A DNA stretch of 64,000 nt from a phage: the NCBI GenBank assembly GCA_024790105.1, contig GCA_024790105.1_3053.1, one strand, 5' to 3'. The notes beneath the pieces are model-generated. The model was not told the DNA's origin. It worked only from the letters and a program-made list of their open reading frames with translations, and did not search any database. Shown in pieces: positions 5,827 to 45,047 of this stretch. Both the position numbers and the translations under genes were made by a program. Positions within the stretch are counted from its first letter, which is position 1, and every line of letters begins with the position of its first letter.

Positions 5827-8004
5827 TTAGGCCGCAAGGGCCTTCATAGTTTTAGCGATTTGAGAAACTTCATCATCGCTTAAAGAGTTGCGATAACCGA
5901 TGAAGTCGGAAACAATACGGAATTTCTTGGTAAACTCAGCAACCATTTTATCACTGTTTTTTGAAGCATTATTTGATAATACATCAAAAAGATTAGTTAC
6001 TGTCCAGATGTCATGACCGATGGTATCTTTTCCACCGTTGAAATATACACCCTGTAATGAACTAACCATATTAGCGAGTCGTGTATATTCTTCAGAAACT
6101 TCATCTACACTGAAGTACTTCATCATAAAATCTAATTCAGGATACTTGATAATTTTATCAATATATCGTTTAGCTGAACTTGAATAACCTACATACTTAT
6201 CATAATCTACATCATCAAAAGCATCTACATATAAATCACGCAAAGCTTCAAAAATACATTGGCACTGACCGAGTTCTTTTACCTTTTTCTGTAAAAGCGG
6301 ACGAATAACATAAAATTCATTAATGCCAATAAGATTAGCCATACGAGTCAAAATACTCGTAGATGGATGACAAAGCGATGTAGTACCATCCATAGAGAAA
6401 ATATCAGAACGATGCATGTATGCTACATAACCAGTAATTTCATCTGCTTCTGACGTAAGTGTAAACAATTCCTCTTTTTCCCAGCGCCCGTCTTTAATTT
6501 CAAACTTAAATGCAGTAGCAGCTTTAGGACGAGGAGCTGTACTTTTTACTGCCTTTGGAATATAACTTTTAACTAAAGCTTCAATTTCTGACAAATAATG
6601 AATGTTAACTTCATCACTTTCAAACATTGTCATAATATCAGGGAGCAAATCAATCTGTGATTCTACTTCTGGATTGATAAACAGAAGACGCTCATTGTGA
6701 TGAATATTTAAGGTGTTATTAAATTCACTATCATCTAATGCATGTGCTAATCCACGGACAATATTAACACGATTTTTAATATTATCAATAACAATATTAA
6801 TTTTTGTCGTATTAATACCAAACAGACGATAACTTGATGCAACGGCTGAAGTTTCATGACTTTGCTTAATGCGTTTCAGTCGAGGGTCAAGATTTACTTC
6901 ATACACAACCCCTGCATTACATAACTTACTATCAGGTTCAAACATACTCTGCATCTTCTTATATGACAGATTTTTAGTCGTGAATTTGACTGAATTACTA
7001 ATCATATAATCTCGAGCAGAATACCCCATCTTCATCAATTCACGATATGTATGACGGGGAGATGTAGATTCTTTAAATCGTTTTACATCTTCATTAAATG
7101 CTTTCTCACTGAGTTCTTTAACTCGTTCAATAATATTTTTACGAGTACGATCATCTAGTGAAAGAGCCTCACGCGATGGAGCAATATCAAGTGAACCCAT
7201 TGGAAACTTAATGTAATTCACTTCATTGCGAATGCTCAACCAGTTACGATCTCTAATAACACCATCGATAGGATAAACAATACCGCCGTAGATAGCATAT
7301 AATCCACCACGATCTGGCCAGTATCTTTCTGGATTTACACCGTAATAATCATCAAAATCCGGAAAATAATCAATTTCACGGTCAAGACCATTAATAATAG
7401 CCAAATCTTTGAACGGTCGCATGATATAAGAAACTTCATAAGCAAAGTTTCTAAAGTCTTTTTCTTCAACTGGAACTACGATTTCAATACCAGTTTTATC
7501 ATCTGGACCCATTTCTTTTACGAATGTAGGTTTAATCTGCGGACCGTCACCATCCATGTAAGCTACATAACCACGAATTTCGCCTTTATGATATGAAGTA
7601 ATACTAAATGTATCAGTATAACTAAACGGAGATTTAGAACCTAAACCAAATCCGCCAATGAAATCGTTGGATTCAGCCTTAGATGAACTGAAGTATGAAT
7701 TATATAACCCAGGAGAATTATCATCACCCTGAATATCAAAATCGCTCATACCCGGACCAAAATCTCGACAAACAAATCGCGGATCTAATCGTCCTGGAAC
7801 TTGAATGATAAATTTTTCAGGATTTCCATTGAGAGCATGGGCGTCAATCATGTTGGTAATCAATTCACGAACTACTGCGCGAATCTTGTTTGTATACAAA
7901 TCAGATGACAGAATTTTAAATACTTTAGGAGATGCTGTGATGCTAAATGCTTTTGATTTAGAACCATTACCAAGAATTGTTTCTTTTTCAGTGGTGATAA
8001 TCAT
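5827..8004 (-). CDS. rIIA: rIIA protein
   Basis: 725-aa ORF, ATG 8004 with GAGGAAATT SD. Confidence 0.95.
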
Positions 8005-28471: not shown

Positions 28472-29639
28472 TAAATTCTTCCATATCACTTAACTGTTCG
28501 AGGTCAGTTTCTAAATCAGCTGCTGATTTACTTTTACTTTCTGGGGATTTAAATTTTTCAACCTTTGAGTTAATCAATTCATCAACTTCAGCTTCAACAA
28601 TTTCATTACTATCAATAGCACCTAACTGATAAGCACGTTTAATAGCATCTCGGAATGGTTGATGCTTAAATAAAGGACCCCAGAATGTAGTGCAGTTAGT
28701 ATCTTTTGCACGCCAAGATTTTTCTTCGCGAATCATCTCGCCGGTTTCTTCATCAAGAAATTCACGAGCATACCAGCCATTTTTAGGTTTTACCACGAAT
28801 CCTAATTCTAGAGCCATATCTAACAATCCAGAATAAGGATCGATACCACCGTCAAATTTAACATCAATAAAGAATTTACTTTTTTCTTTAACGGTACGAG
28901 ATTTTTCTACATTTAGAACAAATTGATACCCCTGAAGATCAGAACCATCTTTAATCTGGCGCTTACCAATAATGAATACGGTATCAGCCGAATACATCGG
29001 TCCAGTACCACCTCCCATAACTGTTTTACTAAACATTTCTTGTGTTTCGTATGTATGATTAATAGCAATACATGGAATATTTTTAGTACTAAAATAGGGA
29101 GTTACGATACGAAATAAGCTTTTCATTGTTTTAGCTCTAGTCATATCACTAACAACTTTTTCATTTAAAGCATCTTCAGTTTCTTTCTTAGAAGCTAAGT
29201 TACCAAGTGAATCGATAAAAACGACTACCTTTTCGCCGCGTTCAATTGCATCCAATTGATTAACCATGTCAATACGTAATTGCTCAAGTGATTGAACCGG
29301 AGTATGAATTACTCGTTCTGGATCGACTCCCATAGACCGCAAATAAGCAGGAGTAATACCAAATTCACTATCATAAAACAAACATACTGCATCAGGATAT
29401 TGACGCATGTAAGATGACACCATTGTTAATCCAAAGTTTGATTTAAATGATTTTGATGGACCTGCCAAAATTAACAGACCAGATTGCATACCACCAGTAA
29501 TTTCACCAGAAAGTGCAATATTCATCATAGGAATTTTTGTTCGAACTACATCCTTTTCATTAAAGAATTTAGATGCTGTTAATTCTGCAGTCAATTTAGA
29601 AGTAGAAGCTTTAATCAAACGAGATTTTAAATCAGACAT
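28464..29639 (-). CDS. uvsX: UvsX recombinase (RecA-like)
   Basis: 391 aa; ATG 29639 with AAGG SD. Confidence 0.95.
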   Translation of the reverse strand: MSDLKSRLIKASTSKLTAELTASKFFNEKDVVRTKIPMMNIALSGEITGGMQSGLLILAGPSKSFKSNFGLTMVSSYMRQYPDAVCLFYDSEFGITPAYLRSMGVDPERVIHTPVQSLEQLRIDMVNQLDAIERGEKVVVFIDSLGNLASKKETEDALNEKVVSDMTRAKTMKSLFRIVTPYFSTKNIPCIAINHTYETQEMFSKTVMGGGTGPMYSADTVFIIGKRQIKDGSDLQGYQFVLNVEKSRTVKEKSKFFIDVKFDGGIDPYSGLLDMALELGFVVKPKNGWYAREFLDEETGEMIREEKSWRAKDTNCTTFWGPLFKHQPFRDAIKRAYQLGAIDSNEIVEAEVDELINSKVEKFKSPESKSKSAADLETDLEQLSDMEEFNE

Positions 29640-29647
29640 ATAATACC

Positions 29648-30313
29648 TTATAGTAGTGTTCTTGTTCCACGAAATACTTCGAGCATTCTTGCATAAGATT
29701 TATTTGGAAATCCAGCTTCAATTGCTAATTTTTTAAGCTTAATAGCACCGGGTTTTCCAGAGTTTTCCCATATTTCTTTAATCTTTTCAATGTTATCCCA
29801 CATTATTGGGTCACGTTTATGTGATGGTTTATTTCTATTATAACCATATGGATTATTAAGCAAAGCTTCTTTTCGTTTTGCTTTAGTTTCTTCTGACTGC
29901 TTTTTGCCTAGCTGGGCTTTCCGGCAAACATCACTAAATCCAAGATGTTTTGGTTTTCCTTTTTGAGCTTTTGAAATTTTTTCTTTGGTTTCTGATGAAA
30001 CTCTATAACCAATTCTTCTACCACCCTCTCCACCAATTTTTAAATTATAAGTCATAGGATCATTTACCACATCTATTGTTACTAATTCTCTTTCAGCATC
30101 ACGGGCTGATTTAAAATCTTTATAAAACCCAAGAATGCTTAAATTAAAATTTTTCTTACCATACTTTTTCTTGGCTTGTGCTAATAAAGTTCCTGATCCC
30201 ATATAACCATCATTTAAATCATCGGTTGAATGAGTTCCATAGTAAATTTTATTATTAACTAAATTAGTTATAACATAAGTATAATTATATTTCTTTTCTT
30301 TATGTCTTTTCAT
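29648..30313 (-). CDS. segA: GIY-YIG homing endonuclease SegA
   Basis: 221 aa from ATG 30313; YVITNLVNNKIYYGTHS GIY-YIG motif; between uvsX and glycosyltransferase. Confidence 0.8.
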   Translation of the reverse strand: MKRHKEKKYNYTYVITNLVNNKIYYGTHSTDDLNDGYMGSGTLLAQAKKKYGKKNFNLSILGFYKDFKSARDAERELVTIDVVNDPMTYNLKIGGEGGRRIGYRVSSETKEKISKAQKGKPKHLGFSDVCRKAQLGKKQSEETKAKRKEALLNNPYGYNRNKPSHKRDPIMWDNIEKIKEIWENSGKPGAIKLKKLAIEAGFPNKSYARMLEVFRGTRTLL

Positions 30314-30317
30314 GTCA

Positions 30318-31160
30318 TTAATCAACTGCTATTGGATGAATAGCATTAAACTTATGAAATGCTTCTGATTTTTCTTTACGCGAAACACACATGCGAAGAA
30401 CCTTTAATGGCTCGTCTTCTTCACCCAATGATTTTCGTTTTTCAATATTCGATGTTTTCCAACGAGCTTGCTCTGGAAACTCTCTATTGATTTGCTCAAG
30501 CGCTCTATTATGTTTAGAATTACTACGAATTGAACTACACCCACCGGGAGCCTGTGATTTTCCAGATACAACTAGATATTTGAACAAGGCCAAATGCGGA
30601 TAACCTTGATTAATTAAATTGAGAAATGCATACATATCTTCACATAAATCAATTTTTCCATACCCAATTTGTTCTGTCGTAAGTTTTCCGAGGTCATACC
30701 ATGTATTCGTGAATCCATATGAGTTTTCACGATAATTACCCCAAGATGAAGTAATTTTAAAAATTGGTAGACGAGCATGACCGTGATAATACCCGCAATC
30801 CATGGCATCTTCAACGTATTGAATTAATTCATAGAACTGTTCACGAGTTAATTGATTAATTTTATCTACACGCCGTTTATCGTCTCTCTTTCGTATTGAA
30901 CTCATACGAATAGTAGTATCATCATCAATCATCCAGATTCGTTGACCTGCATACATATCAGTAATTGCTTTACGAGTACCGGAAATTCCATTAACATCAT
31001 CAGGAATAGTTACAATTTTAGCTCTAGACCCATAAGCGTCATGATAAGCTTTTTCTTCATGTTCACGCACTACAATATGGGGTTCATAATCAGTCGGAAA
31101 CATATTAAGGGCAGAAACTGCCCCTACACGTTGATAGCTCGGAATTACGAATTGAATCAT
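30318..31160 (-). CDS. GT-A fold (family 2-like) glycosyltransferase at the beta-gt locus
   Basis: 280 aa from ATG 31160; VIPSYQR and IWMIDDD (DxD) motifs; does not resemble T4 beta-gt; ATGA overlap with gene 42. Confidence 0.7.
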   Translation of the reverse strand: MIQFVIPSYQRVGAVSALNMFPTDYEPHIVVREHEEKAYHDAYGSRAKIVTIPDDVNGISGTRKAITDMYAGQRIWMIDDDTTIRMSSIRKRDDKRRVDKINQLTREQFYELIQYVEDAMDCGYYHGHARLPIFKITSSWGNYRENSYGFTNTWYDLGKLTTEQIGYGKIDLCEDMYAFLNLINQGYPHLALFKYLVVSGKSQAPGGCSSIRSNSKHNRALEQINREFPEQARWKTSNIEKRKSLGEEDEPLKVLRMCVSRKEKSEAFHKFNAIHPIAVD

Positions 31161-31897
31161 TTCCACTCACCGTTATAATCTTTTTTCATAATATGAGTTT
31201 CGCCAGTATTCCACCAATGATCAACCAAGTAAAAATGACGAGAATATACATGAAGACTTCCAACATTCCATATAATAGAACCTGCTTTATACTGACGAGT
31301 TGAATCGCCTGCATTCAAATCAGATACTAATTTATCTAATACGTATTTTTGCCATGCATAGTCATTACGATAGCCTGCCCAACAGTCATTGCTTCTCATA
31401 TTAACAACCGCATTGACTTTCTTATCACGAATCAGGTACTGTACTGTATTAGTACACATGAAATCTGACATACCATCTTTATTGTAGTCAAATTGCATGG
31501 ATGGACGAGTATAAATCATGATACCACGTCGAGAATCAGGATTTTGACCAAGTTCAGCTAAACACATATCATACTGGGCATAGTTATCTTCTGACCAGAT
31601 AGCCCAACCATAATTCGAGTTAATTTCACCTTTAGAAGATGCTACCTGCTGCCAAATCTTCGGTGTTTCACCCGGAATATCTTTAACGAACAAGCTCTTA
31701 GATTTATACCATTCAAGTTCACGCTGAATGTATTCATCATTAAGAGCGCCAAAAATAAACGGTTCATCTGCTACAAATGATGCGCCAATAATTTCAATAG
31801 TTTTAACACCAGTTTTATCAACTACGAAATCTTTTTCTTTTAATGCAAGCCCCAAATGAAGACGGATTTCTTCAACTGTCATAGAGTCACTAATCAT
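31157..31897 (-). CDS. 42: dCMP hydroxymethylase gp42
   Basis: 246 aa; ATG 31897 with GAGGT SD. Confidence 0.9.
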   Translation of the reverse strand: MISDSMTVEEIRLHLGLALKEKDFVVDKTGVKTIEIIGASFVADEPFIFGALNDEYIQRELEWYKSKSLFVKDIPGETPKIWQQVASSKGEINSNYGWAIWSEDNYAQYDMCLAELGQNPDSRRGIMIYTRPSMQFDYNKDGMSDFMCTNTVQYLIRDKKVNAVVNMRSNDCWAGYRNDYAWQKYVLDKLVSDLNAGDSTRQYKAGSIIWNVGSLHVYSRHFYLVDHWWNTGETHIMKKDYNGEWK

Positions 31898-31904
31898 TTA
31901 AACC

Positions 31905-32054
31905 TCAATTGATACATTCATATTTAACTTGTAACAGTAATAAACCCCAACCTAAAATAATAGTTGGAATCATAAGAGGAACCGTTACACTATAGTATAT
32001 ACTTATTATAACCATCAAGATTAAAAGCAATGCTGTTATAATTTTGCTTTTCAT
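31905..32054 (-). CDS. small membrane protein (49 aa)
   Basis: ATG 32054 overlaps imm stop (ATGA); re-translated codon by codon. Confidence 0.35.
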   Translation of the reverse strand: MKSKIITALLLILMVIISIYYSVTVPLMIPTIILGWGLLLLQVKYECIN

Positions 32055-32302
32055 TCCTTCTCTCTGATGATAATTACCTGATTTGGCTGCGCAGACTTTT
32101 TAGTTTCACCTGCAATTGACCAAATAAATGTAATAAACCAACCAATAATTGACCAGTTAAACAGTAAAGATGTGAAAAAGATTCCTACTGTCGATTTTGA
32201 CCCACGCATCAAGGCGATAAACCATGGAAGCATGTATATAATAATAGCCAACACGCCTGAAACTAAAACCATAAAAATTGAACCTGCTACTAAAGTTTCC
32301 AT
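32051..32302 (-). CDS. imm: Imm superinfection immunity membrane protein
   Basis: 83 aa, two TM helices; ATG 32302 with GAGGAAAAC SD. Confidence 0.8.
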   Translation of the reverse strand: METLVAGSIFMVLVSGVLAIIIYMLPWFIALMRGSKSTVGIFFTSLLFNWSIIGWFITFIWSIAGETKKSAQPNQVIIIREKE

Positions 32303-32309
32303 GTTTTCC

Positions 32310-32690
32310 TCACTTAGTTAAATTTTTTACGCATGAATTATAAGAATTCACTACATACTCCATCGGAGCATTTTTACCAGTACGCCATTGGTAATTATTA
32401 GCCCAATTAGCCCAAAGTTCTGCACAGTAATTTTCAATTTTTTCTTCGCGTGTAATTACATCCGAATTACGATATGCTTGAGCAGATTCATCTGGACGAA
32501 TAGCTTCGTCAAAATTCGCCTGCATTTGTTCTACTGTTTGCTTTGGAGCTTCTTTATAACACTTGACATTAGGATTATAAAATTTGCTTGAACAGTTTAC
32601 AATTTTTCCTACATCAGACTGATTTACTACCGGTCCTTGAGCTACACAACCAGTAAGACCTAATGCAATAACCAAAATAGCGATTTTCAT
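32310..32690 (-). CDS. putative lipoprotein (126 aa)
   Basis: ATG 32690 with GGAGAATGAA SD; lipobox LTGC. Confidence 0.65.
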   Translation of the reverse strand: MKIAILVIALGLTGCVAQGPVVNQSDVGKIVNCSSKFYNPNVKCYKEAPKQTVEQMQANFDEAIRPDESAQAYRNSDVITREEKIENYCAELWANWANNYQWRTGKNAPMEYVVNSYNSCVKNLTK

Positions 32691-32708
32691 TTCATTCTCC
32701 AAATCCGT

Positions 32709-32757
32709 ATCAGTAGTTGATAGTTGTATAGTACCATAGAAGAACAGGGATGTAAAC
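32709..32757 (-). promoter_or_regulatory. early promoter cassette
   Basis: GTTTAC 32757-32752 with conserved -10/leader block. Confidence 0.6.
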
Positions 32758-32840
32758 AGTTTTGTGAAAAAAAAATTTTTAGGGAATCAAAAGGGTCCAG
32801 AATCATCTCTTTTTCATAAGTATAGATTTATATTACTTGT

Positions 32841-32865
32841 ATGAAAAAGGGACCTGGAGGTCCCT
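32841..32865 (-). terminator. rho-independent terminator downstream of gene 43
   Basis: AGGGACC-tgga-GGTCCCT hairpin then U-run on minus strand. Confidence 0.6.
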
Positions 32866-32877
32866 AGATTTATTCTA

Positions 32878-35574
32878 TCAGCCAAACAGGAAGTCTAACG
32901 AAGCTTTTTCTTCATAGTCCATGCCAGCCGATTCACACATACCCGCAAGCGGTTTAACAAACGATTTTTGGAACAAAGTTGAGTGGTCAATCCAAGATAG
33001 TACGTCAGAACGAATTTCTTTTGGAAGTTCTGTACCCGACGGCCAAGCAATGCACTTGTCACCAAATGGATTTCCTTCACGTAATGGAAGAACCATTACC
33101 TTATTTCCATCCAAAATTGGAGCTACACCTAGACCACTAACAGCTCGACGATAAGTTAGCACCCCACGAATGTGGAACGGGCATTTAAATCCTGGCCAAC
33201 CTTTATCATCATATTTCGCTATATCGTTCGCAGTTTTTACTTCAGCAATAACTTTATAGTCGAGTTGACGATATTCTTTCTCGAAGTTCTTGTAGTATTC
33301 TTGGACAGACTCTTCGCCTTCCTGAAGAATACGACGAATACTTTCTTCGAGAGCTTCTTGTACTGCTTTTGGTGTTGAACTCTGCTGAGTTTCCATACCC
33401 ATGATTTTTAGATGCGGTTCAGCAAATCGCTTATCTTCCATATCATAAACGTTCAGAGCATAACGCTTTTTCGCTTTCCAAAATCCACCAACGCCCTTTG
33501 AACCAAGCGGAGGGCAAGAAATAGCTTCACGGTCCATATGCATCAGATGCTCGCGGTTATTCATATAATCACATAACTCACGATATGCAACATCAATCAT
33601 AGGTTCCATCTTTTTCTTACCGAACTGATTCATGAATTCAACTAAATCGTTCTGCTCTTTGAATCGGTCAAGACCAACTTTTTCAATAACTTTATCTACG
33701 CAAACATATACCGAATCAGTATCACCTGCTGCGATGAAATCTTCATCATTAGTTCCGCATACTTTATTCAGATATTCATTAATTTTACGAGCAATCCACT
33801 GAATACCAACTTGGCCGAAAATTGTGATAGCAGTAGCATTTCGCAAATCATAGTAACGGAAATGAATATTACCAAGAGCACCATAAAGACTGTTAATAAG
33901 AATTTTACGGTTCAGCTGATTTGTATTAGCAAGTGTAGCTGCTTTTTCACATTCTTCAATCAGACTATTAAGAACAGATTCAGTATAATTCGATAGTTCA
34001 TTTAAGAAATCATCATTGAACTTAACATATCGTTCAACTTCTGGTTTAGTTGAACAAGACCCTGCGCCTTTCATAATAATCTTTTTAATAGCTTCGGCAT
34101 TCATTTCTTCAGCGAACATTTTCTTTTTCCAGTCTTTACGCTGGAAAAATACTTTAGCAATTTCCTTTGGAATGATACCTTCTTGATGCTTATCATACAT
34201 CCATCCATTCGGAGAACAAGAATATTCATCACTCGGTTTAGGAGCTGTTCCTGCGATATATTCATGAATTGGATGAACTTTAAACTGACCACGAATAGTC
34301 TCAGGACTAATGTTAACCTGACGAATAATGCTCGGATACAGAGACGTCAAGTCAAAACTCATAATATATCGACGAGCAATTGGTTTAGGTTCAAACACAA
34401 ATGCACCCGGAAAACTTTGTTTAACGTGCGAACCTTGTTGAGGAATAACCTTATGTTCACCTTTCAATGAGTTAAAAATAATAGCATCCCAAGTTTTAAT
34501 AGGACTCATTACACCGGAAAAAGGCATTTTAGCGTAATAAGACATACTTAAAACTAGATCGATAAACCCGCGAATTTTATCAATTGCTTGAACTGATTCT
34601 ACGTCAATGATGTTATAACTAATGTATCGTTGATGATTAGTCTCACGAAGTTTATTAATAGGACCGTCGTATGGTAATTTACCTTTTTTGGTTTCATGCT
34701 GAGCAACTGATTCCAAAGAGAATGACGGCAAATTAGTAAAAGCGAATTTCTTGTACAAATCTAAATAATCAAGAATAGATACGCCATCAATAGAATAAAT
34801 TTCTTTGCTACCGTACACATTTTGAATTAGTTTAGATTTTACTCGACCGATTGGAGAGAAGCGTTTCATACTACGTTCACCGAGAACCATTTTAACACGA
34901 TTCATGATATATGGAACGTCAAATCCCTCAATATTCCAACCGGTAAAAATAGCAGGTCGTTTCTGTTCCCAAAGATTAATATATTCCATGAGCATATCAC
35001 GCTCATTATCAAATGGCATATAAATTACTCGGTCAAGAATTTCTTGAGGAACTTCATCACCACCTTCACAGTCAAGCTTAGCAGCTAACTTTGCATCCCA
35101 TTTTGATACTGAACCGTACATTGAATTCAAAAGGTCGAAAACATAAAAACGATCATCAATTGAATCGTAATGAGTGATAGCATCAATTTCATATTCAGCT
35201 TTCATTGGGTCAGGAAATTTATCACCAGTAACCTCAATGTCGCAGTTAGCTACACGAACAAATTTTCGGTCATAAACAATTTCTGAACCATATGTATCAC
35301 TGATGTAAGCGAGTTTAAAATCGTTCATACCGAGAGCTTCGAGACCGATGTCTTCCATTCGCTTCATCCAGTCTCGAGCATCTTTCATTGATGGAAATTT
35401 TTGAGGAGCGCAGTTTTTACCATAGATGTCTTTGTACTTTGACTCTTCCTTACAATGTCTAAACATAGTCGGAAGATATTCTACTTCGCGAGTACGTTCC
35501 TTTCCGTTTTCATCAATATAACGTTCAACAATGTTATTTCCGACTGTTTCAATAGAGATATAAAATTCTTTCAT
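32878..35574 (-). CDS. 43: DNA polymerase gp43 (family B)
   Basis: 898 aa; ATG 35574 with AAGGAA SD. Confidence 0.97.
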   Translation of the reverse strand: MKEFYISIETVGNNIVERYIDENGKERTREVEYLPTMFRHCKEESKYKDIYGKNCAPQKFPSMKDARDWMKRMEDIGLEALGMNDFKLAYISDTYGSEIVYDRKFVRVANCDIEVTGDKFPDPMKAEYEIDAITHYDSIDDRFYVFDLLNSMYGSVSKWDAKLAAKLDCEGGDEVPQEILDRVIYMPFDNERDMLMEYINLWEQKRPAIFTGWNIEGFDVPYIMNRVKMVLGERSMKRFSPIGRVKSKLIQNVYGSKEIYSIDGVSILDYLDLYKKFAFTNLPSFSLESVAQHETKKGKLPYDGPINKLRETNHQRYISYNIIDVESVQAIDKIRGFIDLVLSMSYYAKMPFSGVMSPIKTWDAIIFNSLKGEHKVIPQQGSHVKQSFPGAFVFEPKPIARRYIMSFDLTSLYPSIIRQVNISPETIRGQFKVHPIHEYIAGTAPKPSDEYSCSPNGWMYDKHQEGIIPKEIAKVFFQRKDWKKKMFAEEMNAEAIKKIIMKGAGSCSTKPEVERYVKFNDDFLNELSNYTESVLNSLIEECEKAATLANTNQLNRKILINSLYGALGNIHFRYYDLRNATAITIFGQVGIQWIARKINEYLNKVCGTNDEDFIAAGDTDSVYVCVDKVIEKVGLDRFKEQNDLVEFMNQFGKKKMEPMIDVAYRELCDYMNNREHLMHMDREAISCPPLGSKGVGGFWKAKKRYALNVYDMEDKRFAEPHLKIMGMETQQSSTPKAVQEALEESIRRILQEGEESVQEYYKNFEKEYRQLDYKVIAEVKTANDIAKYDDKGWPGFKCPFHIRGVLTYRRAVSGLGVAPILDGNKVMVLPLREGNPFGDKCIAWPSGTELPKEIRSDVLSWIDHSTLFQKSFVKPLAGMCESAGMDYEEKASLDFLFG

Positions 35575-43828: not shown

Positions 43829-43846
43829 AAAGGGCCGAAGCCCTTT
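43829..43846 (-). terminator. C(UUCG)G hairpin at a-gt stop
   Basis: AAAGGGC-cgaa-GCCCTTT overlapping a-gt stop codon. Confidence 0.5.
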
Positions 43847-45047
43847 ATTTTGTAATAATGTCAAACTGTTCTTTAAAGCAGAAGCTTGAATCTTGGTGCT
43901 GATACAAAAATTCATATGCTTTTTCTCGCTCGCGGTCATAAAGAGCTCGGTCAGATGACAGTTCTTTAATACGTTCAAATGTTGATTCCATGTCATTTTC
44001 ATCAAACCAAATGATACCGCTATCATGCGAGGTCAAAGGAGTATTATCAACACGGAATTTTAAATTTTCGCCAGTAGATTTCCAAAATACCGGAATTGTT
44101 CCACATGCACCAAGCTCGAGATGAGTATATTCTAAAGAACGTTGCAGATATTTTTTATCCAACTTACTCAACTGATAACCAAAACCGGATTTACTCATGC
44201 GTTCAAGCATTTCGCTATTTACATAACGGTCAAGAATTTGCGTTGGCAAATTAGGAGCAATTTTAATTTGGTCTACTTGATGAAGACGATAATACTCGTA
44301 TGGAATTCCCTTTTCTTTAATAGGAATGAACGCTGGAGAACGTTCCAGACCTTCCATAATAGTACTTAGTCCTGCAGGTTTAAGATGTTTTTCGTGAAAA
44401 TCAAACATCTGATAAAAGCCTTTCCATGTAGTAGTACGACCAATCCAACGGTTGATATTCATGTTAATTTCAGAAACATCTTTCCAATAGGTTGATCGAA
44501 CCTTCGCAATATCCATAGGAGGCTGGAAGTTATATACGGTCGGTGCTTCTTCAATATCATCAAACAGAGAAACTGTTTCTGGATACCATTCTTTCATTAA
44601 AACTTTATTAAAATCACCATTATCAGAATGACTAAAAATAACATCAGCTCGACGAACAGTTTCTTCTAATCCCAAATTTCGGCGCAAAGAAAGAGAAGAA
44701 TGGTCATGCTGATAAACTACAACACGAACCGAAGGTTTAATGTTATCAATAATTTTTTTATAGTTATTGATGGTGTCTTCTTCAACCGAAGTAGCAGGAA
44801 CTGAATTGATAATTAGAATATCACAATCATTTACCAGCTTAAGTGTTTTATCATATTCTTTTGCCAATAAAACCGGAATTGAAAATGATTTATAATCATG
44901 CGCGCAATTACGAGTAAATGATTTATCTTTAGCATAAACCAAAGTTACTTCATGACCATTTTTAATAAACCAATCACGTTGCTCGAGTGAGAATTTTGTT
45001 ACACCACAACCTTCAAGACCTCGAGCCAGAAAAATGCATACTTTCAT
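43845..45047 (-). CDS. a-gt: DNA alpha-glucosyltransferase
   Basis: 400 aa; ATG 45047 with GAGGATATTA SD; recognised sequence. Confidence 0.9.
   Translation of the reverse strand: MKVCIFLARGLEGCGVTKFSLEQRDWFIKNGHEVTLVYAKDKSFTRNCAHDYKSFSIPVLLAKEYDKTLKLVNDCDILIINSVPATSVEEDTINNYKKIIDNIKPSVRVVVYQHDHSSLSLRRNLGLEETVRRADVIFSHSDNGDFNKVLMKEWYPETVSLFDDIEEAPTVYNFQPPMDIAKVRSTYWKDVSEINMNINRWIGRTTTWKGFYQMFDFHEKHLKPAGLSTIMEGLERSPAFIPIKEKGIPYEYYRLHQVDQIKIAPNLPTQILDRYVNSEMLERMSKSGFGYQLSKLDKKYLQRSLEYTHLELGACGTIPVFWKSTGENLKFRVDNTPLTSHDSGIIWFDENDMESTFERIKELSSDRALYDREREKAYEFLYQHQDSSFCFKEQFDIITK

Follow-up and report, generated by a model that had tools for sequence, protein, structure and literature searches.

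A T2/T6-type second glucosyltransferase gene very probably occupies the slot downstream of gene 42 in a Tequatrovirus

The 64,000-nucleotide stretch of phage DNA analyzed here, referred to below as the window, carries between segA and gene 42 an open reading frame that we identify with high confidence as the T2/T6-type beta-glucosyl-HMC-alpha-glucosyltransferase gene (ba-gt, also called ggt; TAGT family) of a Tequatrovirus. The encoded enzyme would make gentiobiosyl-hmC after the DNA alpha-glucosyltransferase (a-gt) has acted. The present analysis supports this reading through the identity of the gene, its synteny, the class of its fold and the conservation of its motifs; for the chemistry we rely on published studies of T2, T6 and nearly identical phages. 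Overall, the window is Tequatrovirus DNA, approximately 96% identical to many sequenced isolates. The finding itself is already known, in that this is the long-known T2/T6 enzyme, already named in the records of T6 and many other phages and already the subject of genetic study. Thus, a textbook T2/T6 gene in the majority Tequatrovirus arrangement holds no surprise.

The limits of the gene were established from its start codon. The program-made list of open reading frames gives a minus-strand frame at 30318..31166 that encodes 282 amino acids from a GTG start, and an ATG lies two codons in, at position 31160. Because this ATG overlaps the stop codon of gene 42 as ATGA (31157-31160), as it does in T2, the coding sequence is correctly placed as listed in Table 1. 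The same overlap of gene 42 and ba-gt is also found for the T2, 235Ecol030PP (PP355091) and vB_Eco_EL orthologues. From the sequence, this arrangement suggests co-transcription and translational coupling of the two genes, such that ba-gt would be co-expressed with the hydroxymethylase. A scan for promoters across 29500-32900 yielded 18 sites, versus 14.9 expected, too small an excess to be informative. The reading frame is not a chance occurrence, since a tblastn search pairs it with 689 phage records. A preliminary description of this DNA had reported a 280-residue protein between segA and gene 42 bearing the motifs VIPSYQR and DDD, and both motifs can indeed be read directly from the sequence. 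For segA, the TTG start at 30325 in the program list is an artefact, and the ATG equivalent to that of T4 is located at 30313.

Table 1. Coordinates of the probable ba-gt gene, its motifs and related genes within the 64,000-nucleotide window.
Feature	Positions	Strand	Basis
ba-gt (ggt) CDS, 280 aa; very probably T2/T6-type beta-glucosyl-HMC-alpha-glucosyltransferase, TAGT family	30318-31160	minus	ORF list and homology
VIPSYQR motif, residues 5-11	31128-31148	minus	sequence; first beta-strand (E3-7) and next loop of the model
DDD (DxD) motif, residues 79-81	30918-30926	minus	sequence; after model strand E74-78
E174-D175 (CEDMYAF), start of helix 174-184	30636-30641	minus	family alignment and helix position in the model
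gene 42, dCMP hydroxymethylase (hmC precursor), upstream neighbor	31157-31897	minus	Pfam Thymidylat_synt; gp42 annotation in T6 and T4, synteny
segA, GIY-YIG homing endonuclease gene, downstream neighbor	29648-30313	minus	Pfam GIY-YIG and NUMOD3; T4 SegA match
a-gt, DNA alpha-glucosyltransferase	43845-45047	minus	Pfam AGT 1.8e-237; PHROG 2888; 91% identical to T4 a-gt

Comparisons with characterized phages support the identity of the enzyme. Over its full 280 residues, the window protein shares 96% amino acid identity with its T2 counterpart (AP018813, EcT2_00043), and the same value is obtained with T6 (MH550421, ggt; AP018814, EcT6_00043). Specifically, it differs from T2 at 11 positions and from T6 at 11. 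The match to TRBEL_047 of vB_Eco_EL, a phage of the Durham collection, extends to 276 of 280 residues (99%). Pfam family PF20691 (TAGT, TET-associated glycosyltransferase) aligns to residues 5-209 through profile positions 2-205 of 205, with a score of 43.1 bits against a gathering cutoff of 27.5 (E = 6.1e-11). Similarly, PHROG 842, 'beta-glucosyl-HMC-alpha-glucosyltransferase', is matched at 3.6e-88. Among NCBIfam models none scored above threshold, the best match reaching E = 0.099 and 11.9 bits versus a cutoff of 440, and a large-database protein search returned only 11 clusters.

The surrounding genes tell a similar story. The order uvsX-(segA)-ba-gt-42-imm in the window matches that of T2, T6, PP355091 and EL, with ba-gt directly following gene 42, in the slot taken in T4 by the beta-glucosyltransferase (b-gt). 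Besides protein identity, the window shares with T2 and T6 this slot, the ATGA overlap and the partner a-gt, whose presence had been called earlier and proved to be real (Table 1). It differs from both in that a T4-type segA follows ba-gt, a gene that is absent from T2 and T6. Likewise, the 42-ba-gt arrangement is common to the window and EL, whereas EL lacks segA between ba-gt and uvsX. The window SegA protein is identical to that of T4 at 220 of 221 residues; segA is a neighbor only and stands outside the modification pathway. Four nucleotides (30314-30317) separate the ba-gt stop from the segA start in the window, compared to 164 between b-gt and segA in T4. Together, the 96% identity to T2/T6 ba-gt over 280 residues, the synteny, the TAGT match and a GT-A/GT2-like structural model support the T2/T6-like second glucosylation that the preliminary description had proposed as an example.

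A sequence search of the PDB revealed no solved relative of the window protein, the best hit being an irrelevant protein at E = 1.5. An AlphaFold2 model was generated from a 10-sequence alignment and is of moderate confidence (pLDDT 69, pTM 0.71). In this model, beta-strands and helices alternate, and the predicted structure matches solved GT-A/GT2-like glycosyltransferases, as would be expected of a single Rossmann-like alpha/beta/alpha nucleotide-sugar domain. A GT-A/GT2-like fold has already been published for the T6 enzyme, and TAGT is described as having a GT-A fold and as forming a sister group to GT2 rather than a member of it (PMC13216743). In structural alignments, cellular inverting GT2 enzymes such as BcsA, TarS, TarP and hyaluronan synthase exhibit 7-16% sequence identity to the window protein. 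Their acceptors also differ, in that the acceptor of the window enzyme would be a sugar on DNA. At E <= 1, TAGT is the sole Pfam family matched, and Glycos_transf_2 gives no match. Membership in GT2 was therefore rejected at the sequence level, and the resemblance was kept at the level of fold. Of the earlier label 'GT-A family-2', the GT-A part agrees with the model and the DDD motif, whereas the family-2 part is right only approximately, as a neighbor in fold.

Conservation within the family highlights three sites. The family alignment shows no variation at I6, P7, S8, Y9 and R11 of VIPSYQR, and by analogy we infer that this segment is the nucleotide-binding start usual in GT-A enzymes. The aspartates D79, D80 and D81 do not vary among the 10 aligned homologues, which go down to 31% identity, and from GT-A enzymology these residues are presumed to bind a divalent metal and the UDP diphosphate. 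Finally, D175 is invariant and E174 nearly so; inverting GT2 enzymes have an ED/TED motif, and by comparison with it D175 (or E174) is probably the residue to consider as candidate catalytic base.

What is the relation of this enzyme to T4 b-gt? Comparison of the two proteins by BLASTP gave no similarity (best E = 4.1), which bears out the earlier statement that the window protein does not resemble the T4 enzyme. A tblastn search with T4 b-gt over the 64-kb window likewise detected no b-gt (best E = 1.4), and so the idea that ba-gt and b-gt are both present was dropped for the window. Within these 64 kb, a-gt is present, a T4-type b-gt is absent, and ba-gt takes the b-gt slot. Both enzymes have the position between segA and gene 42 in common, and both transfer glucose from UDP-glucose to hmC DNA in beta linkage. 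However, T4 b-gt adopts a GT-B fold whereas ba-gt is of the GT-A type (PMC13216743; window model), and the acceptor is bare hmC for T4 b-gt but alpha-glucosyl-hmC for ba-gt.

An enzyme that shares its genomic slot with T4 b-gt could be its functional analogue, a beta-glucosyltransferase that acts directly on hmC, and in the SH7, KRT47 and ASO78A records the ba-gt orthologue is in fact labelled 'beta-glucosyltransferase'. We judge this to be highly improbable. The two proteins differ in fold class and lack sequence similarity, no beta-glucosyl-hmC is detected by HPLC/MS in phages that have a-gt plus ba-gt (PMC13390438), and the genetics of T6 delta-ba-gt favor a two-step scheme (PMC11078745). 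Moreover, the labels look like a confusion of names, since RB55 and RB59 show the reverse error.

More generally, the GenBank names of ba-gt and b-gt are often swapped. In RB55 and RB59, a T4-identical b-gt is labelled 'beta-glucosyl-HMC-alpha-glucosyl-transferase'. In the T2 record AP018813, ba-gt is listed as hypothetical, and many adjacent genes are plainly misnamed.

Returning to the T2/T6-type ba-gt assignment, the 99% identity to the EL enzyme combined with the published chemistry makes a three-step pathway the best explanation for the modification genes of the window. In the first step, gp42 would produce hm-dCMP, and hmC would enter DNA at replication. The a-gt product, a GT-B enzyme, would then attach an alpha-linked glucose to hmC in DNA. 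Lastly, the GT-A enzyme of the window would bind UDP-glucose via a divalent metal held by DDD (D79-D81) and, acting with inversion, would join a second glucose through a beta-1,6 bond to the 6-OH of the first, alpha-linked one, yielding gentiobiosyl-hmC. This pathway predicts that the DNA holds hmC, alpha-glucosyl-hmC and gentiobiosyl-hmC, and no beta-glucosyl-hmC.

Gentiobiosyl (beta-1,6-glucosyl-alpha-glucosyl) hmC, made by homologous ba-gt, accounts for 5% in T2 and 72% in T6 (PMC6024577). T6 delta-ba-gt is described as carrying alpha-glucosyl-hmC only, 'presumably in 75% of the cytosines', and is more sensitive to Brig1, and DNA with gentiobiosyl-hmC resists the Brig1 glycosylase in vitro (PMC11078745). 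Both a-gt and TAGT are encoded by three Durham phages, EL, BGP and Geo, for which HPLC/MS gives hmC, alpha-glucosyl-hmC and alpha-gentiobiosyl-hmC at ratios of about 1:2:2, with no beta-glucosyl-hmC (PMC13390438).

The disaccharide alters which host defences act on the DNA, as exemplified by T6 DNA, which is shielded from Brig1 in vitro. The predicted chemistry would set the sensitivity of the window phage to modification-dependent defences (Brig1, GmrSD/BrxU-type) as well as its resistance to restriction and CRISPR. A correct ba-gt call is useful both for annotation and for the choice of therapeutic phages.

The sequence does not predict how much of the disaccharide is formed, because the T2 and T6 enzymes are approximately 97% identical and yet yield 5% versus 72%. 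There is a small chance that the window gene is a weak, T2-like allele, with a few percent of hmC gentiobiosylated and DNA that is essentially alpha-monoglucosylated. The T2 gene, with its 5% gentiobiosyl-hmC, is after all 96% identical, and the window protein is equally far from T2 and T6. On the other hand, the window protein retains R11, a position that never varies in the family alignment but is His in T2, together with an intact DDD. In addition, the EL enzyme is nearly the same protein, and in EL DNA gentiobiosylation reaches about 40% of modified C (PMC13390438). Given R11, the intact DDD and EL as the closest relative, a substantial gentiobiosyl fraction is predicted for the window phage.

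The substitution in T2 ba-gt (AP018813, 7283-8125) affects residue 11, a residue that is Arg in all 10 aligned members, including one at 31% identity, and that is the same in the window and T6. From this alignment, R11H is a candidate reason for the low gentiobiosylation of T2 relative to T6.

Inactivation or decay of ba-gt in the window phage also seems very unlikely, even though two public T6 records have lesions in this gene, which would make it dispensable in the laboratory. In MH550421 the Gln-10 codon reads TAG, an amber codon (about 7950-7952), and in AP018814 one Asp of DDD is lost. In the window, by comparison, the reading frame is intact over 280 codons, every invariant family residue is present, and the ATGA coupling to gene 42 is retained. 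With regard to the T6 records themselves, the MH550421 coding sequence is annotated from Met-20, and AP018814 (2135-2974) has ba-gt at full length with DD in place of the DDD found in the window. These differences reflect either lesions peculiar to individual stocks or errors in sequencing.

The T2/T6-type gene is widespread. A megablast search with 30000-31500 retrieved 508 records, mostly from Tequatrovirus of Escherichia, Shigella and Yersinia, many of which name the gene beta-glucosyl-HMC-alpha-glucosyltransferase. Among the 689 phage records found by tblastn with the window protein, 473 are at least 90% identical, and a second cluster at about 64% is composed of T4-like phages of Klebsiella, Enterobacter, Citrobacter and Salmonella. 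By comparison, T4-type b-gt at 90% identity or more occurs in 29 records. Thus, ba-gt represents the majority state in Tequatrovirus, and T4 is the exception.

The locus in the window is a mosaic of T4-like and T2-like DNA. Identity to T4 is 99.3% over the segment 28400-30340, which comprises uvsX, segA and 27 nucleotides on the upstream side of segA, whereas the window uvsX is only 87.5% identical to those of T2 and T6. From 30316 onward, the sequence becomes T2/T6-like at about 94-95% (ba-gt and gene 42; 30316-32000). The switch falls within a patch of about 25 nucleotides (30316-30340) that forms the last ~25 nucleotides of ba-gt and is common to all three phage types. This pattern is consistent with recombination, or with co-conversion associated with segA. 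Only 9 of the 508 megablast records cover segA together with ba-gt.

A trace of the same gene end is present in T4 itself. Positions 6237-6264 of T4 (NC_000866) match the 3′ end of ba-gt at 26 of 28 nucleotides (GTTCATCGAATAGCAGTTGATTAATGAC), aligned to 30314-30341 of the window. This relic is located between b-gt and segA, directly upstream of segA, and translates as ..HRIAVD followed by a stop. Its presence suggests either that the slot in T4 was earlier occupied by ba-gt or that this flank moves along with segA. The locus may record an exchange of two alternative second glucosyltransferases, a scenario that we put forward tentatively and rate as somewhat less than an even bet. If true, then ba-gt would be the ancestral occupant of the slot and T4 b-gt a later replacement. 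Furthermore, segA, probably along with a co-converted uvsX flank, would have moved between genomes of the b-gt type and the ba-gt type, and the end of ba-gt would have served this transfer as shared homology or as a homing site.

Two additional elements were noted near the gene. A 49-codon hydrophobic open reading frame on the minus strand (31905-32054) exactly spans the gap between imm and gene 42, overlaps the imm stop codon as ATGA and is preceded by a Shine-Dalgarno sequence, GAGAAGGA. The frame is intact in T4, T2 and T6, with 88-94% of its amino acids conserved. It is unannotated in the records of T4, T2 (AP018813), T6 (MH550421, AP018814) and PP355091 that were consulted, and is listed as 'Phage protein' in vB_Eco_EL. 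Within ba-gt itself, a terminator scan identified a minus-strand hairpin at 31106-31126 with a 9-bp GC-rich stem (TAGGGGCAG TTT CTGCCCTTA) and without a proper T tract. The hairpin lies inside codons 12-18, 35-55 nucleotides past the start codon, and its sequence is identical in T6 (MH550421).
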